Part shown: positions 28,084 to 64,000 of the stretch, piece after piece
How positions within the stretch are numbered: position 1 is the stretch's first letter
Layout: the number at the start of each line of letters is the position of its first letter
Assembly (NCBI GenBank): GCA_965230515.1
Contig: OZ246007.1
Coordinates: 3,476,261-3,540,260, forward strand
DNA from: Pseudomonadales bacterium
GTDB lineage: Bacteria; Pseudomonadota; Gammaproteobacteria; Pseudomonadales; IMCC2047
Reading direction: 5' to 3'
Length of the DNA stretch: 64,000 nucleotides
Translations under genes and position numbers: made by a program
Notes under the pieces: generated by a model
What the model was told of the DNA's origin: nothing
The model's input: only the letters and a program-made list of their open reading frames with translations
The model's database searches: none

Positions 28084-28162
28084 TTGATTTAAACGATTCC
28101 CTGGGAGCCCCAGTTTCATGCTATTTCTATCAGAAAGTGCTTGCCGAAAACCAGGCGGTTAT

Positions 28163-30763
28163 ATGAAAGCGGCTGGCCTGGTCAGTTTGTTGATGCTGCT
28201 AATTGTACTGCTGCCCAGTCTTTGGCCGGCATCGTTTTCGGCGCTGAATCCGGTGAAAGTGGATACCGATCCGGAAAACATGCTGGATGTTCAGGAGCCG
28301 GTCCGGGTACTGCACAACCAGATGCGTCGTGAATTTGCATTGTACGACATGTTGGTTGTGGGGGTTGTCAATCGAGAGCATTCCCAGGGGGTGTTCAATC
28401 AGGCTACGCTGACACGGGTGCATGAGCTGGCAGCTTTTGCGCAGACTCTGGTCTGGTCGGAGGGTGATAGCGAGAAGGGTGTTATAGGCGTTGATATGAT
28501 AGCGCCTTCTACTGTCGATAATATTGAACAGGATGGTCTTGGGTCTGTACGATTTGAATGGCTAATGGCACAGCCGCCAACAAGCGAAGCGGAAGCTCTT
28601 GCCGTCGCTGAAAAAGCCCAGCGGTTGCCACTGTTGAATGACACACTGGTTTCTGCTGATCGCAAGGCGCTGGCGCTCTATATTCCCATCAGTGAAAAGA
28701 AGGTCAGTTACCGGGTGGCTTCGCAGCTGCGTGACCGTATTAATACGTTTACAGGAAGTGATCAATACTATATCACCGGTCTGCCGGTTGCCCAGGATCA
28801 ATTTGGTGTGGAGATGTTCCAGCAGATGGCGATATCGGCACCAGTGGCGATGGCCTTGATCTTTATATTGATGTGGTTTTTCTTTCGCAATGTGAAGCTG
28901 ATCATCTCCCCGATGATTGTGGCAATGGTTGCTGTGATTGTCACCATGGGGCTGCTGGTTGCCACGGGTCATACCGTGCACATTATGAGTTCCATGATCC
29001 CCATTTTTATCATGCCGATTGCGGTGCTGGATGCAGTACATATTTTATCGGACTTTTTTGATCGATATCCGCGTTCTAACGATCGTTATACCGCGTTGCG
29101 AGAGGTGATGGAGGAGCTATCGAAACCGATGCTATATACCTCTTTAACCACGAGCGTCGGATTTGCATCTTTGGCTTTAACGCCGATTCCGCCGGTCCAG
29201 GTGTTCGGTTTGTTTGTCGGTCTCGGAGTGTTGATCGCCTGGTTGTGCACCATCACATTGGTGCCGGCTTATATCATGCTGATGTCGGAGTCAGCATTGG
29301 CGGGATTTGGTCTGGTGCAGCATGAAAACCCGGATCAGCGACAACATCCCTCTTTGCTGGTGCGACTGCTCAACGCGACGGGCAGGTTTACCTATCAGCG
29401 TGCCAAACTGATTGTTGTGGCCGTGTGCTTGCTTGCCGGTGTTGCCTACTATGGCATTTCACAGATTAAAATTAATGATAACCCGGTGAAATGGTTTACC
29501 GAAAGTCACGATATCAGGGTTGCAGACCGCGAACTGAATGAGCGATTTGCCGGTACCTATATGGCTTACCTGACATTTCAGGCGCCGTACCAAGATTCGT
29601 CAGCCGAACAAGCCACTGAACAGGTGAGGCTGGCTATAGCCGGCCTGAATCAAACGGTAACCGAACCGTTGATTCAGGAAATGGCCCGGCAGCAGAGTAG
29701 TCTGGATTACCCTTCAAAGCTGCGCAGACTGGTTGATTTTGCAAGAAACCAGGCAGACCAGGCTGAAAGTGATGAGCTGTGGGAAAACTGGGATGCATCG
29801 GTGAGCGTGCTTGAAAATCTGATACAGGAGAGGGAAGTATTCAAATCGCCTCATGTGCTGTCCTATATCAGTGAGCTGCAGAACTATCTGCTCAGTACCG
29901 GGTTGGTGGGTAAGAGTAATTCACTGTCGGATATTGTAAAAACGGTTCACCGTGAACTGTTAGAGGGACAATTATCCGAATTTCGTATTCCGGATAGCAA
30001 AGCGGCTGTGGCACAAACCCTGTTAACCTATCAGGGCAGCCATCGCCCTCAGGATTTATGGCATTTTGTGACCCCGGATTACCGCCGAACAAATCTTTGG
30101 CTACAGCTGAAGAGTGGTGACAATCAGGATATGAAAAAGGTCGTAGAGGCAGTTGATCGCTATCTTATCGATAACCCGCCACCGCACTCGTTAGAGGCTG
30201 ACTGGTTTGGCCTGACCTACATCAACCTGGTTTGGCAGGAGAAGATGGTGGCCGGTATGATGAAGGCATTCCTGGGTAGTTTTGTCATTGTACTGTCAAT
30301 GATGGTGTTTCTGTTTCGCTCATTCTGGTGGGGACTGTTGAGTATGATTCCCCTGACCGTCACCATTGCGCTCACCTATGGCATTATTGGTTTGATAGGC
30401 AAAGATTACGATATGCCCGTTGCTGTGCTTTCCTCTTTAAGTCTGGGTCTGGCCGTTGACTATGCTATTCATTTTCTGGCGCGTAGTCGGGAGTTAAGGC
30501 AGCGGTACTCGAGTTGGCGTGAAACAGTGAGTGCTGTATATGGTGAGCCGGCCAGAGCTATTACCCGAAATATTATTGTCATCGGTTGCGGCTTTTTGCC
30601 CTTGCTCGCGGCACCATTGATTCCCTATCAAACGGTAGGCGTATTCATATCAACCATTTTGTTGTTGGCCGGAGCGGCCACACTTTTTTTACTACCGGCA
30701 CTGATTCGACTGTTTGAAGATCGCCTGTTTGGGTGCGATGCCGGTGTAAATTCGGGAGATTAA
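28163..30763 (+). CDS. MMPL/HpnN-type RND-superfamily exporter
   Basis: 866 aa with two repeats of TM1, a large periplasmic loop and a 5-TM bundle. It has MMPL-like blocks (SAPVAMALIFILMWFFFRN, LDAVHILSDF, SLGLAVDYAIHFLAR). Confidence 0.85.
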   Translation: MKAAGLVSLLMLLIVLLPSLWPASFSALNPVKVDTDPENMLDVQEPVRVLHNQMRREFALYDMLVVGVVNREHSQGVFNQATLTRVHELAAFAQTLVWSEGDSEKGVIGVDMIAPSTVDNIEQDGLGSVRFEWLMAQPPTSEAEALAVAEKAQRLPLLNDTLVSADRKALALYIPISEKKVSYRVASQLRDRINTFTGSDQYYITGLPVAQDQFGVEMFQQMAISAPVAMALIFILMWFFFRNVKLIISPMIVAMVAVIVTMGLLVATGHTVHIMSSMIPIFIMPIAVLDAVHILSDFFDRYPRSNDRYTALREVMEELSKPMLYTSLTTSVGFASLALTPIPPVQVFGLFVGLGVLIAWLCTITLVPAYIMLMSESALAGFGLVQHENPDQRQHPSLLVRLLNATGRFTYQRAKLIVVAVCLLAGVAYYGISQIKINDNPVKWFTESHDIRVADRELNERFAGTYMAYLTFQAPYQDSSAEQATEQVRLAIAGLNQTVTEPLIQEMARQQSSLDYPSKLRRLVDFARNQADQAESDELWENWDASVSVLENLIQEREVFKSPHVLSYISELQNYLLSTGLVGKSNSLSDIVKTVHRELLEGQLSEFRIPDSKAAVAQTLLTYQGSHRPQDLWHFVTPDYRRTNLWLQLKSGDNQDMKKVVEAVDRYLIDNPPPHSLEADWFGLTYINLVWQEKMVAGMMKAFLGSFVIVLSMMVFLFRSFWWGLLSMIPLTVTIALTYGIIGLIGKDYDMPVAVLSSLSLGLAVDYAIHFLARSRELRQRYSSWRETVSAVYGEPARAITRNIIVIGCGFLPLLAAPLIPYQTVGVFISTILLLAGAATLFLLPALIRLFEDRLFGCDAGVNSGD

Positions 30764-30765
30764 AA

Positions 30766-31566
30766 ATGTACCCACTGCTGAGAACTTCATTTGCGATAGC
30801 CTTGGTGCTAATCCTGTTGCCCTTGGGTCGGTCCTGGGCGATTGACGTTGATGAAATCGTAAGGAAAGCCAACCATGCGGCGTATTACCAGGGCAGGGAC
30901 GGGCGGGCCCGTGTGACTATGTCCATCTTTGATGCTCAAAATCGAGAACGAACCCGCGAGTTCACTATCCTGCGTTGGGATGGTGAAGGTGAGGCGGACA
31001 GTGAACAGCGTTTTTATGTCTATTTCAGTCGGCCCTCAGATGTGAGTAAAACCGTGTTTTTAGTCTGGAAACACCTTGAGCGAGATGACGATCGCTGGCT
31101 CTATCTGCCGGCCCTGGATCTGGTGAAACGAATTGCCGCCAGTGACGAAAGGACCAGTTTTGTAGGGTCACATTTTTTCTACGAAGATGTTTCAGGGCGA
31201 GGCATTGATGAGGATGTCCACGAACTGCTCGAACAAACGCAGAACTATTATGTGATCAGGAGTACACCCAAAGATCCGGCGGCGGTCGAATTTTCCTACT
31301 ATAAGAACTGGGTGCACAGGGAGAGTATGATTCCCGTTAAAACGGAATATTTTGATAAAAATGGCGCACTTTACCGTACCTATTCGGCGCTGAACGTCGA
31401 GCAGATTGACGGATTTAACACGGTAACCCAAAGCCGCATGGATGATCGACGTATAGGCGGTTATACGCAGATGAGTTATAGCCGTGTCCGCTATGATACT
31501 GATTTGTCCGAAGATCTGTTTACCGAACGTTACCTGCGTAATCCGCCGAGAAAGGAACTCAGATAG
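30766..31566 (+). CDS. LolA-like 'outer membrane lipoprotein-sorting' family protein
   Basis: Signal peptide MYPLLRTSFAIALVLILLPLGRSWA. IVRKANHAAYYQGRDGRARVTMSIFD...REFTILRW...VWKHLERDDDRWLYLPAL resembles the LolA-like sorting-protein family. It starts 2 nt after the MMPL stop. Confidence 0.65.
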   Translation: MYPLLRTSFAIALVLILLPLGRSWAIDVDEIVRKANHAAYYQGRDGRARVTMSIFDAQNRERTREFTILRWDGEGEADSEQRFYVYFSRPSDVSKTVFLVWKHLERDDDRWLYLPALDLVKRIAASDERTSFVGSHFFYEDVSGRGIDEDVHELLEQTQNYYVIRSTPKDPAAVEFSYYKNWVHRESMIPVKTEYFDKNGALYRTYSALNVEQIDGFNTVTQSRMDDRRIGGYTQMSYSRVRYDTDLSEDLFTERYLRNPPRKELR

Positions 31567-31567
31567 G

Positions 31568-33034
31568 ATGAGCTTTTTGCGGGCCCTGTTTGTGGTATTT
31601 ATTTATCTGGCTATGGCAATGCCAGCTTACGCCAGCGATGCGCCGGTGTTACCTGCCGGCCTTGGGCCTCCCGCAGCGTCAAAGGACCCGAAGCTGCCTG
31701 AAGGATTGAGTTCTCCGGGTGACATCGGCGCGAAGAGTTCCTCTGGCGAGCCTTCGTTACCTTTTGGCCTGGACGGGGCGTTTTCGAAAAACAATGCGCC
31801 GCTGGACAGGGAAACGAGCCAAAAATCATTGTTATCGAAATTAACCGGGTTCGCAGAATTCCGTGGTGGTAGCCGCATTGCCGGTGATGCCAATCAGAAA
31901 CACAAGTCGATACTGGAAAGCCGGTTGCAACTGCAATGGGAGCAGCACTGGCAATCAATCGGCACCAGGATTACCGCAGACCTGCTATACGATGATCTGG
32001 TCAATGATCATGATGTGGCCCTGGAATCAGGGAGAGGCTGGCTGGATCTTCGTGAGGCCTATCTGTTGATTCGACCGACAGGCAGCATCGACCTGAAAGC
32101 GGGGCGACAAATTCTGACCTGGGGTGCTGGGGATCTGGTTTTTATTAATGACCTGTTTCCCAAGGACTGGAACTCCTTTTTTCTGGGGCGTGACAGTGAA
32201 TATCTGAAAGCGCCCTCTGATGCAATCCGGTTCAGCTGGTTTAGTGAACAGGTAAATCTGGAAATTGTCTTCACCCCGAGGTTTGATGCAGACCGGTTTA
32301 TTGATGGATCACGCATCTCCTTTTTTAATCCAAGTCTGGATAACGAAAATGGCGGTGTTGGTTTGATACCGGTCATCAGACCGGATCGGTGGTTTGATGA
32401 CTCGGAGTGGGCGGTCCGCCTGTATCGTCAGCTAGGATCGTTCGAGATTGCCGTGTATGGTTATCAGGGGTATTGGAAAAGCCCGGTCGGGGTTGATATG
32501 CAAAGTGGCGATTCGATATTCCCCAAACTTCAATCATTTGGTACCAGTATCAGAGGACCTTTATATCAAGGTATTGCTAATCTTGAGTTGGGTTACTACT
32601 CGAGCCGGGACGACCGGGAGGGGGTGGATCCGTTAATCCGCAATAGCGAGTTTCGGCTGTTGCTGGGCTATGAGCAGGAACTGCTGGTCGATCTGACCGG
32701 TTCAGTACAAATATACTGGGAACAGATTCAGGATTACAACGCTTATCGAAGTAGTCTGCTACCCGGAATGCCGCCGCGTGATGAAAACAGGCTGGTCTGG
32801 ACCGTAAGGTTAACCCGGTTGCTGTTCAATCAGAATTTAACGCTCTCATTGTTTAATTTCTACAGTACATCCGATCAGGACGGTTATCTGCGGTTAAAGG
32901 CGAATTATAAGGTTTCGGATAGCTGGCAGCTTGAACTTGGACTGAATCGTTTCTACGGAGAAAAGCGACATACTTTTTTTGCGCAGTTTGAAGATAACAG
33001 TAATGCCTACCTCTCATTTCGTTATGGATTTTGA
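31568..33034 (+). CDS. Outer-membrane beta-barrel protein (alginate-export/DUF1302-like)
   Basis: Signal peptide ...AMAMPAYA, alternating-hydrophobicity strands, an LDLREAYLL...LKAGRQILTWGAGD block and the C-terminal SFRYGF aromatic terminus. It starts 1 nt after the previous stop. Confidence 0.7.
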   Translation: MSFLRALFVVFIYLAMAMPAYASDAPVLPAGLGPPAASKDPKLPEGLSSPGDIGAKSSSGEPSLPFGLDGAFSKNNAPLDRETSQKSLLSKLTGFAEFRGGSRIAGDANQKHKSILESRLQLQWEQHWQSIGTRITADLLYDDLVNDHDVALESGRGWLDLREAYLLIRPTGSIDLKAGRQILTWGAGDLVFINDLFPKDWNSFFLGRDSEYLKAPSDAIRFSWFSEQVNLEIVFTPRFDADRFIDGSRISFFNPSLDNENGGVGLIPVIRPDRWFDDSEWAVRLYRQLGSFEIAVYGYQGYWKSPVGVDMQSGDSIFPKLQSFGTSIRGPLYQGIANLELGYYSSRDDREGVDPLIRNSEFRLLLGYEQELLVDLTGSVQIYWEQIQDYNAYRSSLLPGMPPRDENRLVWTVRLTRLLFNQNLTLSLFNFYSTSDQDGYLRLKANYKVSDSWQLELGLNRFYGEKRHTFFAQFEDNSNAYLSFRYGF

Positions 33035-33202
33035 TTGTTAAAGTGCCCCATAAAGTCATCTTTTTGATATTTTATTGTAAAACACAAATTTACTTTTTCT
33101 GACTTCACAAATTAGTCATTTAGACTATGCTCAGTAAGGGGCTAACCACTATTGTTATCCAGTGGTTGTATAGAAAAATAAAAAAAATAACGAGATAGAC
33201 TG

Positions 33203-35230
33203 ATGTACAGAAATTTTCCTGCCCAACTGAATGGCGCAATATTGGGGTTGAGTGTCGCTTTTTTGAGTCTGACTCAACCCACCGAGGCAAATAGCCTGTC
33301 GGCTGCTCAACTGGCCGAGCTGCCCTTTGAGGAGCTCATGCAGATGGATGTCATGGTCTCCAGTGTCAGCAAAATGGACCAACTGTTGGCAGATACCGCC
33401 GCGGGTGTTTTTGTGATTACCGCGGAAGATCTTCGGCGCAGCGGTGTCAGTTCCATCCCGGAAGCACTGAGAATGGTTCCGGGAATGCAGGTGGCCCGTA
33501 TTGGTAGCAGTGAGTGGGCAGTTTCCGCGCGAGGCTTTAGTTCGCGGTATTCCAAATTCCAGCTGATTCTTGTTGACGGTCGCAGCGTCTATGATCCCCT
33601 GTTTGGTGGTGTTAACTGGGATGAGCAGAATCTGATTCTGGAAAATATAGAACGCATTGAGGTGATAAGAGGCCCTGCCGGCAGTGTCTGGGGCAGTAAT
33701 GCCGTGAACGGGATGGTCAATATTATCACCCGCCAGGCCAGGGACAGTCAGGGTCTGTATCTCTCTGTCGCGGGAGGGAATGAACTGGAGCGCTCGTCGC
33801 TGGTGCTCAATTATGGCGCGCCGTTGGCGCAGGGCCATTATCGGGTCGGCTTGCGTCACGCCCGGCATGGCTTGATGTCGGGTAGTGAAGGATTGGATGA
33901 TAACGCCTGGCAGGATCAGCGCATTACCTTTGATTATCAGGGTGATCTTGCGCAGGGGCAGTTGTCTGTTTCCTTTGCGCTTTTCAGGATAGAAACCGAA
34001 ACCCTGTGGCCTTCGATACAGTTTGACCGGTTTACCACCTTTGCGGTGGATCCGGAAGAGGATAAAGAGGGTGGTTCATTTCAAGTAAACTGGGAGAAGG
34101 AGATCGGGCCAAATGTGGCGCTCAGTCTGCGCAGTTCCTATGACGATATACACCGAAGCTCAGACCTTTTTGAATGGAACAGTGATAATTTTGACCTGGA
34201 TGCAGAAATCACCTATTCCGGTTTAGCAAAGCAGGAGATTCGAGTTGGAGCGAATACCCGGTTCAGCCGCAGCGAGTTCATCAACAAGGGTGGTTTTAGC
34301 TTAACCATTACACCGGAGAAGGATCGTCTGGAAAACCTGAGTCTGTTTGTGCAGGATGAGATTCGTCTGAACCGGGCAGTGCGGCTTACCCTTGGCGCAC
34401 GTTTTGAGGACTCCTCCCTTGGAGGCAGCGCGCTACTGCCGTCGGCGCGATTGCTTTGGAAACCCGCCGAGCAACACCGCGTCTGGGCCGCTGCGTCCCG
34501 GGCTGAAGCCACACTATCAAGATTTGAGTCGGATAACCTGCGTGTCAATACCGATATCCTGCCTCCCGGTGTGGCGGGACCCCTACCGGTATTGCTGACA
34601 CTGACCAACTCCGGTGAGTCTCCAGAGAATTCAGAATTGCTGGCCTATGAATTGGGCTATCGTTTTCATCAAAGCGAGAATTTTGAAATGGATCTGACCC
34701 TGTTCCGGCATGAGTATGATCATTTGATTGACTCAGGCAGGGCACTTCCTCCCTACCTTTCAGCGTTTTCAGGTCAGTCCTTTACCCAGCTGGATCTGGT
34801 CGCCAGTGATACTGCAGAGGGCGAGTTATCGGGTGCGGAGCTTTCAACCAGCTGGAAAATCAATGACCAGATTTATCTGCAGTACAGTGGCAGCTATATC
34901 GAATCCGATATCGATAATGGCTCACCGGTTTTTTACGATGCGCCAGAATGGCAGCACTCTCTTCGGGCACTGTGGAACCTGAAACCGGAGATCAGTCTTG
35001 ATAGCTGGCTCAGTTATGTCGACGCTGTGCCTGAGAGTGATATTGAAAGTTACTGGAATCTTAATGTTCGAGTGGCGTGGCAGCTCAGTCCCCGGTTTAG
35101 AGTGTCCCTGATGGGTAAGAATCTAATCGATTCCGACCGTGTTGAGTTTGAAAGAGAGAATCTGCCACCCAATAACCATGAAATGGTAAATTACTGGTTT
35201 ATTAAGTTCGAATGGACACCGGGTAACTAG
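33203..35230 (+). CDS. TonB-dependent receptor
   Basis: Signal peptide, plug-domain blocks (VFVITAEDLRRSGVSSIPEALRMVPGMQV, ILVDGRSVYDPLFGGVNW, IERIEVIRGPAGSVWGSNAVNGMVNIIT), then a long beta-barrel region. Confidence 0.9.
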   Translation: MYRNFPAQLNGAILGLSVAFLSLTQPTEANSLSAAQLAELPFEELMQMDVMVSSVSKMDQLLADTAAGVFVITAEDLRRSGVSSIPEALRMVPGMQVARIGSSEWAVSARGFSSRYSKFQLILVDGRSVYDPLFGGVNWDEQNLILENIERIEVIRGPAGSVWGSNAVNGMVNIITRQARDSQGLYLSVAGGNELERSSLVLNYGAPLAQGHYRVGLRHARHGLMSGSEGLDDNAWQDQRITFDYQGDLAQGQLSVSFALFRIETETLWPSIQFDRFTTFAVDPEEDKEGGSFQVNWEKEIGPNVALSLRSSYDDIHRSSDLFEWNSDNFDLDAEITYSGLAKQEIRVGANTRFSRSEFINKGGFSLTITPEKDRLENLSLFVQDEIRLNRAVRLTLGARFEDSSLGGSALLPSARLLWKPAEQHRVWAAASRAEATLSRFESDNLRVNTDILPPGVAGPLPVLLTLTNSGESPENSELLAYELGYRFHQSENFEMDLTLFRHEYDHLIDSGRALPPYLSAFSGQSFTQLDLVASDTAEGELSGAELSTSWKINDQIYLQYSGSYIESDIDNGSPVFYDAPEWQHSLRALWNLKPEISLDSWLSYVDAVPESDIESYWNLNVRVAWQLSPRFRVSLMGKNLIDSDRVEFERENLPPNNHEMVNYWFIKFEWTPGN

Positions 35231-35811
35231 TGCCGGGCAGCATGATTGTTATGATGTTTAAACGACCACCCGGTAAAACTCTCCGTTACCTGCTGTTGGC
35301 GCTATTGCTACCGCTGTCTTTCAGTGTATCGGCGCTCGATGTTGATGTGGTTGCGCTGAAGGCAGCCTATTTGGCAAATTTTATGAAGTTTGTGAAGTGG
35401 CTGCCGGAGAATAATCATGGAAACCAGACCAGTGAAATCTGTTTGTTGGCAGAATCCGGCGAGTTGCAAGACGCATTGGTGAGTATTGCAAACTCGGCCG
35501 GAGCGCCGGGACGCTTCTCGGTAAGACGCCTTGGAAGTGATGCACTGGAGTCCCCTGAATCGACGCGAGCTTGCGCGGTGCTCTACTTTGAAGAAGAGTA
35601 CAGGGATGCCATCGCCGACCAGATCAAATTGATGCTGGAAAGTCCAATATTATTGGTTTCAGAAAATGATGTGGGCAGCACTTTTTCGATGATCTCCATG
35701 TTTCTGGTTGGTAATAAACTTAAATTTTCCGTCAATCTCAGATTGGTCAGTGATGCTCAACTGAGCATCAGTTCGAAATTACTGCGACTGGCTTATCGGG
35801 TATACGAATAA
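35230..35811 (+). CDS. YfiR-like periplasmic protein (DUF4154)
   Basis: Signal peptide, then LKAAYLANFMKFVKWLPE and two conserved-looking Cys (EICLL, RACAVLYF), as in YfiR-family proteins. The GTG at 35230 shares a base with the receptor stop. In-frame ATGs at 35242, 35251 and 35254 are alternative starts. Confidence 0.7.
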   Translation: MPGSMIVMMFKRPPGKTLRYLLLALLLPLSFSVSALDVDVVALKAAYLANFMKFVKWLPENNHGNQTSEICLLAESGELQDALVSIANSAGAPGRFSVRRLGSDALESPESTRACAVLYFEEEYRDAIADQIKLMLESPILLVSENDVGSTFSMISMFLVGNKLKFSVNLRLVSDAQLSISSKLLRLAYRVYE

Positions 35812-35814
35812 CTT

Positions 35815-37908
35815 ATGGCAGGACTCAATTTCAAAATAAAAACCAAAATGGTCATTATTGTGATGGCCGTTGCGATGCTCGGTATGCTTGGTATCGGTAT
35901 CCCGCAGGTGTTAAAGACGATCCGTTTGATTGAAGCCAACCAAAGCCGCAGTCTTGAAAGCGCGATGCAGATACTGGGGCATAACCTGTCAGCTTCGGTG
36001 CTGTTCCAGGATGAAGAGAGTGCCCAGGAACTGTTGCAATCGATGGGCGGGGATCCCTCGATTATCCTGGTCAGGGTGGTGTCAAATGACACCCGATTTG
36101 GTGTAGCTTTCCGAAATGATAAATTTCCATCCGAAGCACATCTTATTGAATCGGGGACGCTGAAAACGGAGCAGCTCTCGAAGCAAAATATTCTCTATAT
36201 CCGTCAGTTGGTTCAGCATGACGGCCAATCGGTGGGTGAATTGCATCTTTATGCCTCTGATTTGCAGGTTCAAAGGCAGGTGGTTGACTCCATTCAGGGT
36301 TTCCTGATGGTTTTTCTGGTGGTGGGTGCCGTGGCGCTATGGGTCACCGTACAGCTGCGCAAAACCATCACCCGGCCGGTGTTAAAGCTCAATCGTATTT
36401 CGCAGGCGGTCATGAAAACAGGAGACTATTCACTCAGAGTGGATGTGAATGGTAGTGACGAGTTGGGTCAGCTGGCCCGAGATTTTAACCGCATGCTTGA
36501 ACAGATAGAGAACCGGGATAGAATTCTGGAAAGTACCGTGCAGGAACGTACCAGTGAGTTACAGGGTCTGGCGGAGGACTTCAGGCATCGTGCGTTGCAT
36601 GACGCGTTAACCGGTCTGCCAAACAGGGCATTGCTGGTGGAAAGGTTCCACGGCTGGACCGATAAAGCCAGAGAGGGGGGCGTAAAACTGGGTCTGTTAC
36701 TGATTGACCTGGACAATTTCAAAGTGATCAACGATACCTTGGGACATGAAGTGGGCGATGATCTGCTGAAAATTATCGCCAGTCGCCTTATCGGTGTGAT
36801 CAGGAAACAGGATTTTGTTTGTCGATTGGGTGGTGATGAGTTTGTGCTGGTGATCAATAATTTGGCTGAGATTGCTGACCTGGAGAAAAAAGCCGAGAGT
36901 ATTATGGCGGCTTTTAAGGAGCCGTGTGTTATGAAGGGGCAGCAGTTGGATATTACGTTTAGTGTTGGCGGGAGTGTGTATCCCGATCATGGTAAAGAGT
37001 TGACCGAGTTGAAGCGGTCAGCGGACATTGCCATGTATAGAGCCAAAGAACAGGGGAAAAACCGGTATCAGCTGTTTATGGAGAGTATGGAGGAGAGTGC
37101 CAGGCGGCGCATGCTGGTGCAAAACGAGATTCGCTCGGCAATTCAGAACGAAAGGATCATTGTCCACTATCAACCCAAGGTAAACGCCCGCACCGGTGAG
37201 TTTCTCGGCTGTGAGGCGCTGTGTCGTTGGGATCACCCGGGTGAAGGCATCATTTATCCTGAGAAATTTATTGCCTACGCGGAAGATTGTGGTCTGATTC
37301 ATTATCTGGATTACCATGTGGTGTCAACGGCGGTTAATCAGGTGCTTGAGTGGCACCGCAAAGGCTTTTCGGAGGTGAGGTTGGCGGTCAACCTGTCAGC
37401 CCAGCATTTCAGTAATGAAAATATTGTTGTTTTTATAGAGAATTTGCTCGCAGAAACCGGCTTTCCGGCTTCCTGTCTTGAACTGGAAATTACCGAAGCG
37501 GTATTCATCAGTGAAACCGAGATCGCGAGACACGTGATTCATGAGCTCAGAGCGTTAGGCTGCAAGTTAAGTCTGGATGACTTTGGTGTGGGCTATTCCT
37601 CCCTGAGCTACCTTCGCACTATGCCGGTTAACTGTATTAAACTGGATAAGTCCTTCATTGCATTGCTGAGTCAATCCGCTAAGGATCGCCAGTTAACCCA
37701 GGGAATTATTGCGCTTGCGGAAGGGCTTAATCTCGAGGTGGTTGCTGAGGGTATCGAAACGCGAGAGCAGATGGAATACCTGCTCGAATTGGGGTGTGAC
37801 CAGCATCAGGGTTATTACTACGGCAAACCTATGCCAGTGGCGGCACTGGAAAACTGGATTGAGGCCTGGGATCGTCAAGATCAGCGGGAGCAGATTTACC
37901 TCAATTAG
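35815..37908 (+). CDS. YfiN-like sensor: TM-periplasmic domain-TM-HAMP-GGDEF-EAL protein
   Basis: Two TM helices flank a periplasmic segment of about 125 aa. HAMP is present (RPVLKLNRISQAVMKTGDYS...ELGQLARDFNRM). GGDEF is intact (RLGGDEF) with an RKQD I-site 5 aa upstream. The EAL domain has EALCRW, DDFGVGYSSLSYL, EGIETREQ and QGYYYGKP. Confidence 0.95.
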   Translation: MAGLNFKIKTKMVIIVMAVAMLGMLGIGIPQVLKTIRLIEANQSRSLESAMQILGHNLSASVLFQDEESAQELLQSMGGDPSIILVRVVSNDTRFGVAFRNDKFPSEAHLIESGTLKTEQLSKQNILYIRQLVQHDGQSVGELHLYASDLQVQRQVVDSIQGFLMVFLVVGAVALWVTVQLRKTITRPVLKLNRISQAVMKTGDYSLRVDVNGSDELGQLARDFNRMLEQIENRDRILESTVQERTSELQGLAEDFRHRALHDALTGLPNRALLVERFHGWTDKAREGGVKLGLLLIDLDNFKVINDTLGHEVGDDLLKIIASRLIGVIRKQDFVCRLGGDEFVLVINNLAEIADLEKKAESIMAAFKEPCVMKGQQLDITFSVGGSVYPDHGKELTELKRSADIAMYRAKEQGKNRYQLFMESMEESARRRMLVQNEIRSAIQNERIIVHYQPKVNARTGEFLGCEALCRWDHPGEGIIYPEKFIAYAEDCGLIHYLDYHVVSTAVNQVLEWHRKGFSEVRLAVNLSAQHFSNENIVVFIENLLAETGFPASCLELEITEAVFISETEIARHVIHELRALGCKLSLDDFGVGYSSLSYLRTMPVNCIKLDKSFIALLSQSAKDRQLTQGIIALAEGLNLEVVAEGIETREQMEYLLELGCDQHQGYYYGKPMPVAALENWIEAWDRQDQREQIYLN

Positions 37909-38142
37909 CATGAACAGGCCTTGCAAAAACTTCCGTCTGGAAAAACCTCGAGGTGTATCCTTTTTACGCTATCGGCCATGCCCTGTGTTGGAGAGTCGGC
38001 TTTGTTTAATTTGCTGAATTCCGTCAGGTTGTATAAACCGCCGCGATGCTGCTAATTACTGTAACGGAGTTTGTACAATGCTTGCTTTATGGCCTGAAAA
38101 ATCAGATCATTGTGCCGCAAAATCCTCAGGTATTTAAATGGA

Positions 38143-39195
38143 ATGGTATTTGCCGGAATGCTGAAAAATCACACGTCCTCGTTGAGACGTAACATCCTGT
38201 TAAGTGTATTACTGCTTGCAAGTACTCATTTAGCCATTGCCGCACAGGAAAAAGGTGTTAAAACCCAGCCTTTGTCAGAAGTGGCTTTATACCCTGAGAG
38301 ATCGGCGCCAGCCAGTGTGGTCAGCCTTAACCAGGCGACCATCAGTGCACAGATAAATGCAACGGTTACGCAAATTCCGGTTCGGGTGGGGGATATCGTT
38401 GACAAAGGCGCTATCCTCGCGCGTCTGGATTGCACGGATTATCAGTTCTCCAGCAAAGTAGCGCTGGCTCGCCTTGACGAATTGAAGGCACGTATCCAGC
38501 TTGCCAAACGCCGTGTGAAAAGAGCTGCCAGTCTGTTACAAAAACAATCGGTTTCTGAGCAGACACTGGAGGAGAGGGAGGCTGATCTGGCAGTACTGCA
38601 GGCGAATTATCAAGCCGCTCAGGCCGACCTGGGGGTGGCTGAACTCAATGAGGAACGCTGTGTTGTCCGTAGTCCTTTTCAAGCGCTGGTTCAGGAAAGA
38701 GTCAGCGCACAGGGGGACTACGCGTCAATAGGCCATCCACTGGTGAGAATTCTGGACCTTGATGCAATAGAGGTTTCGGCGCAAGTGTTCGCTCAGGACG
38801 CGCGATACGTAGGCTTTGCTGACAAACTCCATTTCGAACACGCAGGACAGCGATATCCATTGAGTTTAAGGACTGTGCTCCCAGCGATAAATTCGCAAAC
38901 ACGAAATCAGGAAGTGAGATTATTATTCGCTGGCGAGGCCGCTCTGCCTGGTGCGGCAGGAAAGCTGTATTGGCGGGATGTTCGTCCACACGTACCGGCA
39001 CATCTGCTGGTTAAACGGGATGGCCAGCTTGGGCTCTTTATCGTAAGTGAGGGACAGGCCCGGTTTATTGCCATGCCCGCTGCGCAGGCGGGAAGGGCCA
39101 GTCCAACCAACCTGCCGGAGTTGACGCCTTTGGTAGTTGAAGGCCACCTGGGCTTACGTGATGAGGAGCCAGTGTTGAGCGAGGGTGGATCCTGA
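38143..39195 (+). CDS. Efflux RND periplasmic adaptor (membrane fusion protein, HlyD family)
   Basis: Signal/anchor segment, a lipoyl-like block (ISAQINATVTQIPVRVGDIVDKGAILARLD), a coiled-coil hairpin and a beta-barrel region. The start is ambiguous (TTG 38110, ATG 38143 or ATG 38158). Confidence 0.85.
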   Translation: MVFAGMLKNHTSSLRRNILLSVLLLASTHLAIAAQEKGVKTQPLSEVALYPERSAPASVVSLNQATISAQINATVTQIPVRVGDIVDKGAILARLDCTDYQFSSKVALARLDELKARIQLAKRRVKRAASLLQKQSVSEQTLEEREADLAVLQANYQAAQADLGVAELNEERCVVRSPFQALVQERVSAQGDYASIGHPLVRILDLDAIEVSAQVFAQDARYVGFADKLHFEHAGQRYPLSLRTVLPAINSQTRNQEVRLLFAGEAALPGAAGKLYWRDVRPHVPAHLLVKRDGQLGLFIVSEGQARFIAMPAAQAGRASPTNLPELTPLVVEGHLGLRDEEPVLSEGGS

Positions 39196-39252
39196 AAACA
39201 CAAACAGAAAAGTTTCAGATTGATGGCCTGAACGGTTGCTTTCATCATCCAG

Positions 39253-42200
39253 GTGGACAACCGAATAGCCGGGGGCGGGTGCTTGAACTGGCTTAGGCGG
39301 CTGCTATCCAATCATGTCCTGACAAATTTAACCTTTGTACTGGTATTGGTGCTGGGTTTTATGGCTTACCAGCAGCTTCCTCCTGCACGGGACCCAGAAA
39401 TTAATTTCAACTGGATCACCATTATTACCGTGCTTCCGGGCGCTTCTGCAGAGGATATCGAGAGACGTCTCACTGATCCTCTGGAAGAGGCGATCGCGAG
39501 TGGTGTCTCTGATATAAAATTTGTAACCAGTACCAGTCGCGAAGGGATCTCGAATATTCTTGTTCGCTTTAATCAGATAGATGAGAGGACTTTTGACAAG
39601 CGGCTCAGTGATCTGCGGCGTGAAGTTCAGAATACTTACAATGATGAACTGCCGGACGATGCCAATGATCCCATTATATTTGAAATCACCAGCTCCAGCG
39701 GTTTTCCCTCTGCAACTATAGCGGTAACCGGAATTGGTTCGGATGAGAATCTGCGTGTGCAGGCTCGAAATATAAAACGGGATCTGGAACGTTTAAAGGG
39801 CATCGATCGAATTACTCCGATGGGGATGGACGATCCTGAATTACATGTAACCTTTTATCCGCAACAGTTGGAGGGGCTGGGTATCACACCGGCGGATCTG
39901 AGCGATACAGTGCGCGCCTATTTCAGAGATGTTTCTGGTGGGGATGTAAAAACCCGTGACGGGCAATGGCTGGTGCGGCTGGCTGGTACCAGTCCTGATC
40001 CCGAGGTGATGGCCGATTACATGATTATGACTGCCCAGGGAACGGTTACGCTGGGAAGTCTGGCTGAACTGTCGCGATCCAGTGAAGAGCCCTCTGAAAT
40101 TGTCAGCTATAACGGGCAGCCCGCTCTACTTTTGCCGATCGTGAAAAAGGCTAATACCAATGTGCTCGAATTGGTCGATCGGGTTCAACAGTACATCGAT
40201 CAGCGAAATCAGTTCAGTGCCGGTACGGGTGTGAAACTGGTGCTGGTGGATGATCAGACCATCAGTACACGAGATGCGCTGTCGCTGATGCAGAACAATG
40301 CGTTAATCGGTTTAATGCTGGTGTTGCTGGTGACCTGGGTGTTTCTGGGTACACGCGTTGCACTACTCACCAGTATTGGCATTCCCTTTACCTTGGCTGG
40401 TACCTTTTTAACCATCAAGACGATGGGCATGGGGTTGAATAACATGGTGTTATTGGGTGTCGTTATCGCCCTGGGTATGCTGGTTGACGATGCGGTGGTG
40501 GTGGTTGAAACCATGTATCGCCGTTTGCGTGAAGGGATGGCCGGGATTGAAGCGGCAATTGACGCGCTGAGAGAAGTCTTTGCACCGGTGACAACTTCCG
40601 TATTGACCACAATGGCAGCGTTTCTGCCTCTGATGCTGTTACCCGGCATTCTTGGCGAGTTTATGAAAGTCATACCCCTGGTGGTGAGTATTGCTTTGGC
40701 GATAAGCCTGATCGAAGCCTACTGGATGTTGCCTGCGCATGTGAGTGGTGCCGGTATCGGACGGAAAACCACCCAATCGATGCAGCATTGGCGAGAACGA
40801 ATGACCCACCGGGTAAAACTGGCCTATACGCGCATTCTGCTAAAGGCACTTCGTCATCCGGTTATTTCGATCATCGCTTCGCTGGCCATTATTCTGCTGG
40901 CTGTTCTGATTCTGGCGTCAGGGAAAATTCACTTTAACTTTTTTGCTACGGATCCGCTGCGGCTGTTTTACGTTAATGTTGAGATGAAGCGCGGGACGAC
41001 CCTTGAGGATACGGCGAAGCAGGTTCAGGAAGTTGAAAAGAGGTTGTTAACAGTCATTAAACCGGAAGAGCTGCGAGCGTCGGTCGCATATTCCGGGCAA
41101 CAGTTTACAGAGACTGAGCCGTTGTTTGGCGATACCCTGGGGCAGATTATGGTCAGCCTGAATCCTGCCAGCAAGGAAGATCGAAGCGTCGATGAAGTCG
41201 CGGATGTGGTGCTTGCCAGTGTGGCGGATTTTCCAGACACGGAATCGATATCGCTGTTACGCATGAACAATGGTCCTCCAACGATGCGCGCCATCAGTGT
41301 CAAGGTGAGAGGAGATGAATTCGACGAGATTAAGCGGGCTGCTGACCGGTTGATTGATTATATGGAATCGCAGGGAAATTTTAGCAACATTTCACTGGAT
41401 TACCGGCCCGGAAATCCGGAACTGGTTTTGCGACACAATGCTGAGGCAATAAAGCGGACAGGATTGACGCCTGACGTTGTGAGTCGGGCGATTCAGGCTT
41501 ATGTGGATGGGGAGTTAGTGACCAGTTTTCAGGATCAGGGTGAAGAGGTGATGGTTCGGGTGCTGGCAAAGCAGCGAGCGCTGAACAGTATCGATGCCCT
41601 GTTGCGTCAGACGTTGCCTCTGCCCGGTGGCGGTTCTGTAGCATTGGGTGATCTGGTCACCGCTGAGTATGGTCTGGGGCAGTTTAACATCAGGCATTAC
41701 AATTTCCGCCGTACCATTACACTGGAATCTGACATTGATAAAAACAGAATCAATACCGTTCAGGCTAACGATCTGATCAAAGAGGAGTGGCAGAGAATAG
41801 CAGCAGAATTTCCAACGATTAATCTGGATTTTACCGGAGAACTGGATGATATCCAGGAGTCTCTGGATGCAATCTGGATGTTGGGATTGCTGGGGATCGG
41901 TTTAATCTACATCATTCTCGGTACCCAGTTTCACAGTTACTGGCAACCGTTTATGGTGCTGACTTCTTTACCGCTGGCGATCACCGGTGTGGCACTGGGG
42001 TTGTTTGTAACCAGCAACCCCTTAAGTCTTTATACACTTTATGGTGTGGTGGCACTGATGGGTATCTCGGTTAACTCGGCTATTGTGTTGATCTCGGCGG
42101 CGAATGCGCGACTGGAAAGTGGTATGAGCGTACTTCATGCGACGGTTTATGCAGCCCGGCGTCGTGTTATTCCAATACTGATTACGTCATTGACCACGAT

Positions 42201-42384
42201 TGCCGGATTATTTTCACTGGCAGCAGGTTTGGCCGGAAAATCGTTGATCTGGGGGCCGGTTGCGACGGCAATTGTCAGTGGCCTGGCAGTCTCAACGCTG
42301 CTGACGCTGTTTGTTATTCCGCTCATCTTCCGCACCACCATGGGGCGCAGTCATCGCGTAGTTGCTCGTGATAGTCATCGTTAG
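39253..42384 (+). CDS. Efflux RND transporter permease (AcrB/AcrD/AcrF family)
   Basis: About 1040 aa with 12-TM RND architecture. Blocks include PEINFNWITIITVLPGASAEDIE, LGMLVDDAVVVVE and VVALMGISVNSAIVLI. The GTG start is uncertain; a TTG at 39283 is an alternative. Confidence 0.95.
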   Translation: MDNRIAGGGCLNWLRRLLSNHVLTNLTFVLVLVLGFMAYQQLPPARDPEINFNWITIITVLPGASAEDIERRLTDPLEEAIASGVSDIKFVTSTSREGISNILVRFNQIDERTFDKRLSDLRREVQNTYNDELPDDANDPIIFEITSSSGFPSATIAVTGIGSDENLRVQARNIKRDLERLKGIDRITPMGMDDPELHVTFYPQQLEGLGITPADLSDTVRAYFRDVSGGDVKTRDGQWLVRLAGTSPDPEVMADYMIMTAQGTVTLGSLAELSRSSEEPSEIVSYNGQPALLLPIVKKANTNVLELVDRVQQYIDQRNQFSAGTGVKLVLVDDQTISTRDALSLMQNNALIGLMLVLLVTWVFLGTRVALLTSIGIPFTLAGTFLTIKTMGMGLNNMVLLGVVIALGMLVDDAVVVVETMYRRLREGMAGIEAAIDALREVFAPVTTSVLTTMAAFLPLMLLPGILGEFMKVIPLVVSIALAISLIEAYWMLPAHVSGAGIGRKTTQSMQHWRERMTHRVKLAYTRILLKALRHPVISIIASLAIILLAVLILASGKIHFNFFATDPLRLFYVNVEMKRGTTLEDTAKQVQEVEKRLLTVIKPEELRASVAYSGQQFTETEPLFGDTLGQIMVSLNPASKEDRSVDEVADVVLASVADFPDTESISLLRMNNGPPTMRAISVKVRGDEFDEIKRAADRLIDYMESQGNFSNISLDYRPGNPELVLRHNAEAIKRTGLTPDVVSRAIQAYVDGELVTSFQDQGEEVMVRVLAKQRALNSIDALLRQTLPLPGGGSVALGDLVTAEYGLGQFNIRHYNFRRTITLESDIDKNRINTVQANDLIKEEWQRIAAEFPTINLDFTGELDDIQESLDAIWMLGLLGIGLIYIILGTQFHSYWQPFMVLTSLPLAITGVALGLFVTSNPLSLYTLYGVVALMGISVNSAIVLISAANARLESGMSVLHATVYAARRRVIPILITSLTTIAGLFSLAAGLAGKSLIWGPVATAIVSGLAVSTLLTLFVIPLIFRTTMGRSHRVVARDSHR

Positions 42385-63753: not shown

Positions 63754-64000
63754 TTAATAAAGACATGCTCTGTTTCGACCAAATTTCTTGGCTTTGTAGA
63801 GAGCCTTGTCTGCGGCGTTCACTATTGCCGCCATATTGTTGTTGCATTGAGTCAACTCGGCAACTCCGCTGCAGACCGTGGTATTAACAGGGAGCTCCTG
63901 ATTGCTGTTTAGCAGTTCATCCTGGGCAATTTTTGAAACCAGCTTTTGAGCCAGTTGCAGAGCGCCTGAGGCGTTGGTATTTGGCAGTGTGATCAGAAAT
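63754..64000 (-). CDS. GGDEF-domain protein, C-terminal fragment (the gene continues beyond the window)
   Basis: It is not in the ORF track because there is no start in the window. My minus-strand translation reads FLITLPNTNASGALQLAQKLVSKI...TVCSGVAEL...ADKALYKAKKFGRNR, the typical C-terminal third of a GGDEF domain. The stop codon TAA lies at 63754-63756. Confidence 0.75.
   Translation of the reverse strand, partial: FLITLPNTNASGALQLAQKLVSKIAQDELLNSNQELPVNTTVCSGVAELTQCNNNMAAIVNAADKALYKAKKFGRNRACLY

Follow-up and report, generated by a model that had tools for sequence, protein, structure and literature searches.

A conserved cassette of a TonB-dependent receptor, a YfiR-like protein and a CHASE8 sensor, with a GGDEF-EAL output in a Pseudomonadales bacterium

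The YfiBNR system (TpbB) of Pseudomonas aeruginosa and Escherichia coli combines a periplasmic DUF4154 protein, YfiR, with an inner-membrane enzyme of CHASE8-HAMP-GGDEF architecture, YfiN; their genes lie next to each other and are coupled. The third partner, YfiB, is a Pal/OmpA-like lipoprotein of the outer membrane that sequesters YfiR, and it is encoded last. The same system is known as AwsXRO in Pseudomonas fluorescens and as HmsCDE in Yersinia. Here we describe a three-gene cassette in a stretch of 64,000 nucleotides (nt) from a Pseudomonadales bacterium (GenBank assembly GCA_965230515.1, contig OZ246007.1, positions 3,476,261 to 3,540,260 of the forward strand); this whole stretch is called the window below. 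The cassette likewise encodes a DUF4154 protein and a CHASE8-HAMP-GGDEF enzyme in adjacent, coupled genes, and here too the third partner belongs to the outer membrane. In contrast to YfiB, however, this partner is a 22-strand TonB-dependent receptor and is encoded first. An intact EAL domain is also added to the enzyme.

A cassette of receptor, YfiR-like protein and sensor with a kinase output has already been catalogued, because NCBIfam holds three linked models for it (NF053590, NF053591 and NF053592). The locus in the window shares with this TOL_0244/TOL_0243 cassette the three-part architecture, the gene order, the use of one strand and the tight junctions. It differs in its output, which is a fused GGDEF-EAL protein, whereas the NCBIfam form ends in a histidine kinase. 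The cassette is real and conserved. We found no published mechanism behind the NCBIfam entries, which are names, and no functional study of the cassette in the literature on YfiR and TonB receptors, DUF4154/PF13689, CHASE8 or the NCBIfam accessions. A preliminary description of the locus, made from the DNA letters, knew of no experimental account of the architecture; we found none either, but the architecture is on record in the curated models with kinase output.

The cassette consists of three open reading frames (ORFs). The features on which the comparison rests are as follows.

33203-35230, forward strand: ORF of the TonB-dependent receptor, 675 amino acids.
33311..33373, forward strand: family-specific N-terminal motif of the receptor, residues 37-57, LAELPFEELMQMDVMVSSVSK, made up of a short segment and a TonB-box-like strand.
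35230-35811, forward strand: ORF of the YfiR-like protein, 193 amino acids when counted from the GTG at 35230.
35815-37908, forward strand: ORF of the CHASE8-HAMP-GGDEF-EAL sensor, 697 amino acids.
35938..36249, forward strand: CHASE8 periplasmic domain, sensor residues 42-145 (Pfam PF17152, E = 5e-11).

The preliminary description had reported three coupled ORFs on one strand at these positions, and both the ORF calls and the bases at the junctions agree with it. The receptor stop codon TAG (35228-35230) has G35230 in common with the GTG start codon of the YfiR-like ORF. The YfiR-like stop codon TAA (35809-35811) is followed by 'ctt' and then by the sensor ATG at 35815. To this we add an in-frame ATG at 35242, an alternative start that would yield a YfiR-like protein of 189 amino acids and that is used in the protein-database gene call (P0001). 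The junction between the receptor and YfiR-like genes is either a 1-nt overlap (GTG 35230) or an 11-nt gap (ATG 35242), and is tight whichever start codon applies. No clear Shine-Dalgarno sequence was found at either of the two starts (window positions 35230-35244).

The YfiR-like protein had been assigned to the YfiR/DUF4154 proteins, with a signal peptide and two cysteines, and profile searches agree with this. Pfam PF13689 (DUF4154, YfiR/HmsC-like) matched residues 42-188 with E = 5e-26. The protein has a signal-peptide-like N-terminus to about A35, the LKAAYLANFMKFVKW block, and the cysteines C70 and C115. Its AlphaFold2 (AF2) model reached a predicted local distance difference test score (pLDDT) of 78.7, and its top 15 matches in the PDB were all YfiR, at template modelling (TM) scores of 0.69-0.76. 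The next matches after YfiR were binding proteins, namely 3LKV, 3LFT (with L-Trp bound) and a Rhodothermus single-domain binding protein. A pairwise search against P. aeruginosa YfiR gave a marginal match (E = 0.25), and the score against the NCBIfam equivalog model for YfiR was 36 bits (cut-off 85). A profile built from the DUF4154 proteins of the cassettes matched YfiR chains at E = 8e-19. Judged by profile and by predicted fold, the 193-amino-acid protein is a member of the DUF4154/YfiR family.

In the published YfiB-YfiR complex, a hydrophobic pocket of YfiR takes Met59 of YfiB, and the Met59 segment and a strand of YfiB pair with YfiR (PMC4655355). When a pairwise alignment was read against that structure, the pocket was also hydrophobic in the YfiR-like protein (F151 to I155, A164 to V168, I169 to V173, V176 to I180, V180 to L184, L181 to L185). 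C70 and C115 align with the redox-sensitive pair Cys71-Cys110 of YfiR. In contrast, the equivalent of the essential, fold-critical disulfide Cys145-Cys152 of YfiR is absent from the window protein, where the aligned stretch reads VG-STFSMIS. The protein also departs from near-invariant sites of its own family, at E40V, T142L, F148V, G152F and G153S (window positions 35347-35349 and 35653-35691). The YfiR-like proteins of metagenome contig L001 and of Simiduia agarivorans, which are linked to GGDEF-EAL sensors as well, also lack the GG pair, and its loss may mark a subfamily.

The sensor had been described as a protein with a CHASE8-type periplasmic domain between two transmembrane segments, followed by HAMP, GGDEF and EAL, and this layout was recovered in full. 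The Pfam domains are CHASE8 (residues 42-145), HAMP (181-232), GGDEF (260-417) and EAL (437-672). Two hydrophobic segments at about 6-34 and at 155-183 enclose a periplasmic stretch of about 120 residues. The motifs RKQD330, GGDEF339, EAL467, NLS526, ELEITE556, DDFG588, KLDKS609, EGIE645 and QGY665 are all present. To judge from these residues, the GGDEF and EAL motif sets are both intact, and so is the RxxD I-site, as in a bifunctional enzyme of cyclic di-GMP (c-di-GMP) turnover. The sensor is 26% identical to E. coli DgcN over residues 15-413, and it scored 254 bits against the NCBIfam DgcN model (cut-off 325); its CHASE8-HAMP-GGDEF part is YfiN-like at the level of sequence. The sensor of the Simiduia agarivorans cassette is 45% identical over the full length. 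By homology with YfiN, the YfiR-like protein would be expected to dock on the CHASE8 domain.

In the receptor, Pfam identified a Plug domain (E = 1e-21, residues 63-170) and a TonB-dependent barrel (E = 5e-25, residues 241-641). The AF2 model likewise shows a plug and a barrel (predicted TM score 0.80), with Cir (TM score 0.81), BtuB and FepA as top matches in the PDB. The model is that of an ordinary transporter of this fold, and the matches give no clue to the ligand. The motifs IRGP, DGR and PG are invariant in the receptor alignments, and we take these columns to be plug motifs of a working transporter. As predicted from sequence and model, the anatomy of the receptor is complete for a functional TonB-dependent transporter, with plug, 22-strand barrel, TonB box and plug motifs. 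Among the receptors in the census described below, 41 of 57 matched NF053590 at E <= 1e-60, and the remainder form a second clade that is about 18-20% identical.

The N-terminal motif of the receptor follows the consensus DLxxLSLEELMxIEVTSVSK. Among 100 cassette receptors L45 was conserved in 99%, E43 in 93% and V52 in 85%, and the motif holds more information per position than the barrel. It is common to both clades of DUF4154-linked receptors and does not occur in unrelated TonB-dependent receptors of the same loci. The motif probably lies on a flexible tail, because residues 1-49, which include its part 37-49, have a pLDDT below 50 in the AF2 model. The closest relatives of the window receptor (41% and 40% identity) are encoded by stand-alone genes and carry the motif too, and we dismissed it as an exclusive mark of DUF4154-linked receptors.

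All three window proteins found their top NCBIfam matches in the linked cassette models. The receptor scored 449 bits against NF053590 (TOL_0244 family TonB-dependent receptor; cut-off 645), and the YfiR-like protein 72.6 bits against NF053591 (TOL_0243 family YfiR-like periplasmic protein; cut-off 125). Sensor residues 8-232 scored 111 bits against NF053592 ('HK_near_YfiR_like', sensor histidine kinase, YfiR-like protein-associated; cut-off 194), which was the top match among the N-terminal sensor models. With all scores below the curated cut-offs, the window proteins are outlying relatives of these families and not as threshold members.

The cassette also stands at a distance from YfiBNR. 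As far as sequence allows, it is YfiBNR-like in its inner half, with the YfiR fold, the hydrophobic pocket and the Cys71/Cys110-equivalent pair retained, and it falls outside YfiBNR by the missing outer-membrane lipoprotein and second disulfide. No YfiB/OmpA-like gene was found in any of the six frames of the 64-kb window, either with a profile seeded on E. coli YfiB or with sequence searches, in line with the preliminary description. Profile and sequence searches of the six frames also detected no second TonB-dependent receptor, no second DUF4154 gene and no tonB/exbBD genes in the window.

TonB-dependent receptors with a role in signalling are known from several other systems. The TonB-dependent transducers (FecA-FecR-FecI, FpvA, PupB) resemble the window receptor in having a conserved N-terminal element before the TonB box. 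In contrast to these transducers, the receptor has no N-terminal STN signalling domain: Pfam gave Plug and barrel only, the Plug begins at residue 63, and the mature N-terminus leaves just about 20 residues before the TonB box. Furthermore, Pfam identified neither a FecR-like anti-sigma gene nor an extracytoplasmic function (ECF) sigma gene among the neighbours of the cassette, and no Fur box precedes it, as had been claimed earlier. The output of the cassette is c-di-GMP in the window or a phosphorelay in most relatives. Classical TonB cell-surface signalling was ruled out for this locus by the missing STN domain and the lack of adjacent FecR or ECF genes. In PfeA/PfeSR and PirA/PirSR of Pseudomonas, and in the SusC-like importers of Bacteroides with their hybrid two-component systems, an importer is encoded beside an inner-membrane sensor of the imported compound. 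However, these sensors bind the ligand directly, without a DUF4154 adaptor or a CHASE8 domain. Finally, OmpS of Alcanivorax dieselolei (B5T_01485) is reported (Wang & Shao 2014, as cited in PMC6304351 and PMC9788540) to be an outer-membrane alkane sensor that triggers chemotaxis. It is, like the window receptor, a TonB-dependent receptor, and one whose reported role lies in signalling and is not purely nutritional. A similarity of 40.3% between OmpS and TOL_0244 was reported by the authors of the TOL_0244 study (PMC6304351).

We used two censuses to investigate whether the three genes are linked in other genomes. For the forward census, the YfiR-like protein was aligned with its five detectable relatives (<= 35% identical), and one genome per species was scanned with the alignment. 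It comprised the 80 reference-genome loci most similar to the YfiR-like gene, with 86 DUF4154 genes. ORFs were classified by profiles whose seeds were the window proteins, as verified with Pfam, and the E. coli proteins YfiR, DgcN and YfiB. A single-sequence search of the whole library yielded 4,695 cluster representatives at E <= 0.001, and the forward census represents the nearest 80 loci only. The reciprocal census searched metagenomes with an alignment of receptor homologues, and gave 80 loci, of which 67 had enough downstream sequence.

In the forward census, a TonB-dependent receptor lay immediately upstream on the same strand of 59 of the 86 DUF4154 genes, and within 6 kb of 71. The gene after DUF4154 was a CHASE8 sensor with a histidine kinase output in 58/86, with GGDEF-EAL in 10/86 and with GGDEF alone in 1/86. 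Most census cassettes are of the kind catalogued in NCBIfam. No YfiB-like gene was linked to any of the 86 DUF4154 genes; a single OmpA-like gene occurred within 4 kb, on the opposite strand. The reciprocal census gave the same picture from the side of the receptor. DUF4154 was found immediately downstream in 58 of the 67 loci and elsewhere in the flank in 7 more (65/67), and only two loci were without it. A CHASE8 sensor was normally the next gene after DUF4154, with a GGDEF-EAL output in 1 of 48 cassettes. In an independent check of the families, all 117 DUF4154 ORFs matched PF13689 and NF053591, and CHASE8 was present in 75/75 and HAMP in 70/75 of the sensors beside DUF4154 genes. According to the record titles, the forward census included Gamma-, Beta-, Alpha- and Deltaproteobacteria, Acidobacteriota, Nitrospirota, Verrucomicrobiota, Planctomycetota, Campylobacterota, Bacteroidota/Ignavibacteria and Spirochaetes. 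These results show that the receptor family, the DUF4154 protein and the CHASE8-HAMP sensor are inherited together, in that order, across many phyla. Conservation of the linkage from either side and over many phyla ties the receptor functionally to the module. The neighbourhood census proposed in the preliminary description confirmed the linkage.

The c-di-GMP-output cassette is a recurrent minority variant. The identical order of receptor, DUF4154 and CHASE8-HAMP-GGDEF-EAL genes was found in metagenome contig L001 and in the complete genome of Simiduia agarivorans, where precomputed gene calls show gaps of 3-5 nt and overlaps of 1 nt. Among the kinase-type cassettes, 29 of the 52 that could be evaluated have a GGDEF protein fused or nearby, which makes c-di-GMP a frequent end point of the whole cassette family. 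The window form is a short-circuited version of the kinase-type cassette.

Several loci depart from the common arrangement. Tandem receptors precede a single DUF4154 gene in loci L060, L082, L094 and L162. A CHASE8 sensor, but no receptor within 6 kb, accompanies about 15 of the 86 DUF4154 genes. In a Nitrosomonas locus (L007, 1-10906) the order receptor-receptor-DUF4154 occurs twice, together with another receptor and without an adjacent sensor, and a Geomonas locus (L042, 5833-11473) has the order receptor-DUF4154-DUF4154-receptor, again without an adjacent sensor. DUF4154 proteins partner with TonB-dependent receptors in their own right, as these pairs show. An alternative order was seen in marine contigs and Oleiphilus (L002, 5184-11394; L026, 7944-14277), with DUF4154 followed by a CHASE8 kinase, a REC-GGDEF-EAL protein and the receptor last; in this receptor the N-terminal motif is retained in a variant form.

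We compared the distance matrices of the three proteins over 100 cassettes. DUF4154 and CHASE8-HAMP distances were correlated with r = 0.69, and with a partial r = 0.64 when the receptor was controlled for. Together with the homology to YfiR-YfiN, this correlation of sequence distances makes the DUF4154/CHASE8 partnership well supported. Very probably, the three genes form a functional unit in which the signal passes through the YfiR-like/CHASE8 pair. By homology with YfiR-YfiN, the YfiR-like protein would bind the CHASE8 domain and hold the enzyme in one output state. The receptor would be the input of the cassette, a role favoured only slightly, by analogy with YfiB. Binding of a ligand to the receptor might expose its flexible N-terminal tail, with the LSLEELM-type segment and the TonB box, in the periplasm. 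The exposed tail could then bind to the hydrophobic pocket and the edge strand of the YfiR-like protein, and so capture this protein and draw it away from the sensor. Once freed, the sensor would shift the balance between synthesis and hydrolysis of c-di-GMP. That the receptor sequesters the YfiR-like protein in this manner, as YfiB sequesters YfiR, is a reading that we put forward tentatively, by analogy. We favour it slightly, because of the precedent in the family, the conserved motif on the tail, the translational coupling, and the receptor-DUF4154 pairs without a sensor.

Several observations weigh against sequestration by the receptor. The correlation between receptor and DUF4154 distances (mirror tree) was only r = 0.36, with a partial r = 0.10 when the sensor was controlled for, and the two receptor clades have no counterpart clades in DUF4154. 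Nor was a receptor-specific conserved patch found on DUF4154, as receptor-linked and unlinked proteins (the latter only 13 sequences) conserve the same positions. The N-terminal motif may serve TonB rather than the YfiR-like protein, because the orphan relatives carry it. The receptor has the plug motifs of a working transporter and lacks the N-terminal signalling domain of the TonB-dependent transducers. Moreover, the YfiR-like protein of the window is off the family consensus at the near-invariant sites E40V, T142L and G152F. The weak mirror-tree signal itself neither proves nor excludes a contact through an invariant motif. The preliminary description had placed the receptor in the position of YfiB. 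The part of this claim that ties the receptor to the module is upheld by the conserved linkage, but the YfiR-like protein co-diversifies with the sensor and not with the receptor.

The same pattern of co-diversification, strong between DUF4154 and sensor and weak between receptor and DUF4154, is in keeping with a receptor that is an ordinary TonB-powered importer. In that case the YfiR-like protein would bind the imported substrate in the periplasm, which would alter its seat on CHASE8 and thereby the c-di-GMP output, and no contact with the receptor would be needed. We consider this explanation possible but doubtful; it and sequestration account for the data about equally well. The missing DUF4154 counterparts of the receptor clades and the missing receptor-specific patch speak for it, as do the interchangeable receptors, with two clades and tandem copies at a single DUF4154 gene. 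The receptor has the plug, barrel and TonB box of an importer, and the orphan close relatives show that its family is able to work alone. There are also precedents for a sensor of imported compounds, since the PfeS and PirS kinases sense imported siderophores and the hybrid two-component systems of Bacteroides sense sugars imported by SusC. Binding proteins come next after YfiR among the structural matches to the YfiR-like model, and the fold of YfiR itself is that of the N-lobe of type I periplasmic binding proteins (PMC4655355). Furthermore, the type member TOL_0244 is nutrient-responsive, being sevenfold up on the alkane n-C28 (PMC6304351). However, DUF4154 proteins are single-lobed, whereas real binding proteins have a two-lobed cleft, and the sole established activity in the DUF4154 family is protein-protein binding, to YfiN and YfiB. 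Import and sensing would also leave without explanation the strong conservation of the receptor N-terminal motif across clades and the translational coupling of the receptor and DUF4154 genes.

The YfiR-like/CHASE8 pair can exist without a linked receptor, because about 15 of the 86 DUF4154 genes show this arrangement. The pair might sense something in the periplasm by itself, such as stress on the envelope or redox stress, which has been proposed for YfiR, and the receptor would then be a transporter that is merely co-expressed or regulated downstream. The match of C70/C115 to the redox-sensitive Cys71-Cys110 of YfiR fits such a role, and so does the co-diversification, which singles out the sensor and not the receptor as the partner. 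Still, we regard this as improbable. DUF4154 lies near the receptor family in 65 of the 67 blind metagenome loci, which is far tighter than usual co-regulation, and receptor-DUF4154 pairs exist without any sensor. Within the unit, the receptor gene comes first and does not follow a regulator, and the output in the window is c-di-GMP instead of a transcription factor able to regulate the receptor. An unrelated siderophore-type receptor gene might also have come to lie by chance beside a YfiR/YfiN pair that lost yfiB, and some sources do give homologues the generic label 'iron complex outer membrane receptor'. This explanation is effectively refuted by the same gene order in two independent censuses across many phyla. 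The leader without a Fur box, the tight junctions in the window, L001 and Simiduia, and the top NCBIfam matches of all three proteins to the three linked cassette models also speak against it.

Sequestration of the YfiR-like protein by the receptor could be extended to a more general proposal. The cassettes might represent a third class of TonB-dependent signalling across the envelope, and a widespread one, in which a YfiR-like adaptor docks on a ligand-exposed receptor motif and so releases a CHASE8 sensor. YfiBNR would then be a derived offshoot with a lipoprotein replacing the receptor. As a whole, this proposal seems rather unlikely to us. If true, the released CHASE8 sensor would drive a phosphorelay or, as in the window, c-di-GMP turnover directly, and the class would stand beside the ECF-sigma/anti-sigma route and the import-plus-sensor route.

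Many enzymes of c-di-GMP networks still await the assignment of an input, and scarce or bulky compounds cross the Gram-negative surface mainly through TonB-dependent receptors. A receptor family that occurs nearly always with a YfiR-like protein and a CHASE8 sensor, in phyla that include Desulfobacterota, points to a large and unstudied coupling of outside capture to inside lifestyle decisions. Within the wider partnership of DUF4154 and CHASE8 proteins, YfiBNR seems to be one of the less common forms, at least as judged from relatives of the window's YfiR-like protein. The cassette is directly testable, because the same c-di-GMP-output form occurs in cultured strains, e.g. Simiduia agarivorans SA1.

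The leader before the receptor gene is 168 nt long, with 70% A+T, and contains two further features.

33104..33131, forward strand: candidate sigma-70-type promoter, TTCACA-16-TATGCT, 9/12 matches, a weak call.
33144..33167, no strand assigned: inverted repeat AACCACT-N10-AGTGGTT, downstream of the candidate promoter and upstream of the receptor start codon.

We treat the promoter as a candidate because the region has no more sites of this kind than shuffled sequence would lead one to expect; the same holds for the numbers of promoter- and terminator-like sites in general. The inverted repeat could be a putative operator or a leader hairpin. The best match to a Fur box in the leader was 13/19, which was reached by 13% of the shuffles (p ~0.13), and iron regulation of the cassette was dismissed with the match at shuffle level. 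Across the 64-kb window, no Rfam families (at the gathering threshold) and no tRNA genes were found.

Upstream of the cassette, at 28118-33034 on the forward strand, three overlapping ORFs encode an HAE3/MMPL-type resistance-nodulation-division (RND) protein of 881 amino acids, a LolA-like protein of 277 amino acids and a DUF1302-like outer-membrane barrel of 516 amino acids. In Thalassolituus oleivorans, the strongest responders to long-chain alkanes were an MMPL/LolA-like protein and the putative porin next to it, for which no conserved domains were reported, and the induction of TOL_0244 on n-C28 was seen in the proteome of the same species (PMC6304351). The alkane induction of TOL_0244 was the one experimental hint at a ligand that we found. 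This induction and the upstream MMPL/LolA/DUF1302 genes are at most suggestive of a hydrophobic ligand, and together they offer a starting point for a ligand search. The trio is not conserved beside the Simiduia or L001 cassettes. Downstream, at 38110-42384 on the forward strand, lie an RND efflux adaptor (361 amino acids) and a permease (1043 amino acids), with no adjoining gene for an outer-membrane factor. The window as a whole is ordinary chromosome, with nadB-like, pyk, pyrG, eno and mutS genes and an even G+C content. Its MutS is 82% identical to that of the nearest relative and 67-69% identical to those of Amphritea and Motiliproteus, which places the source no more closely than near these two genera, as an Oceanospirillales-like marine gammaproteobacterium. 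A second GGDEF-domain ORF at 63757-63999 on the reverse strand is cut by the window end.

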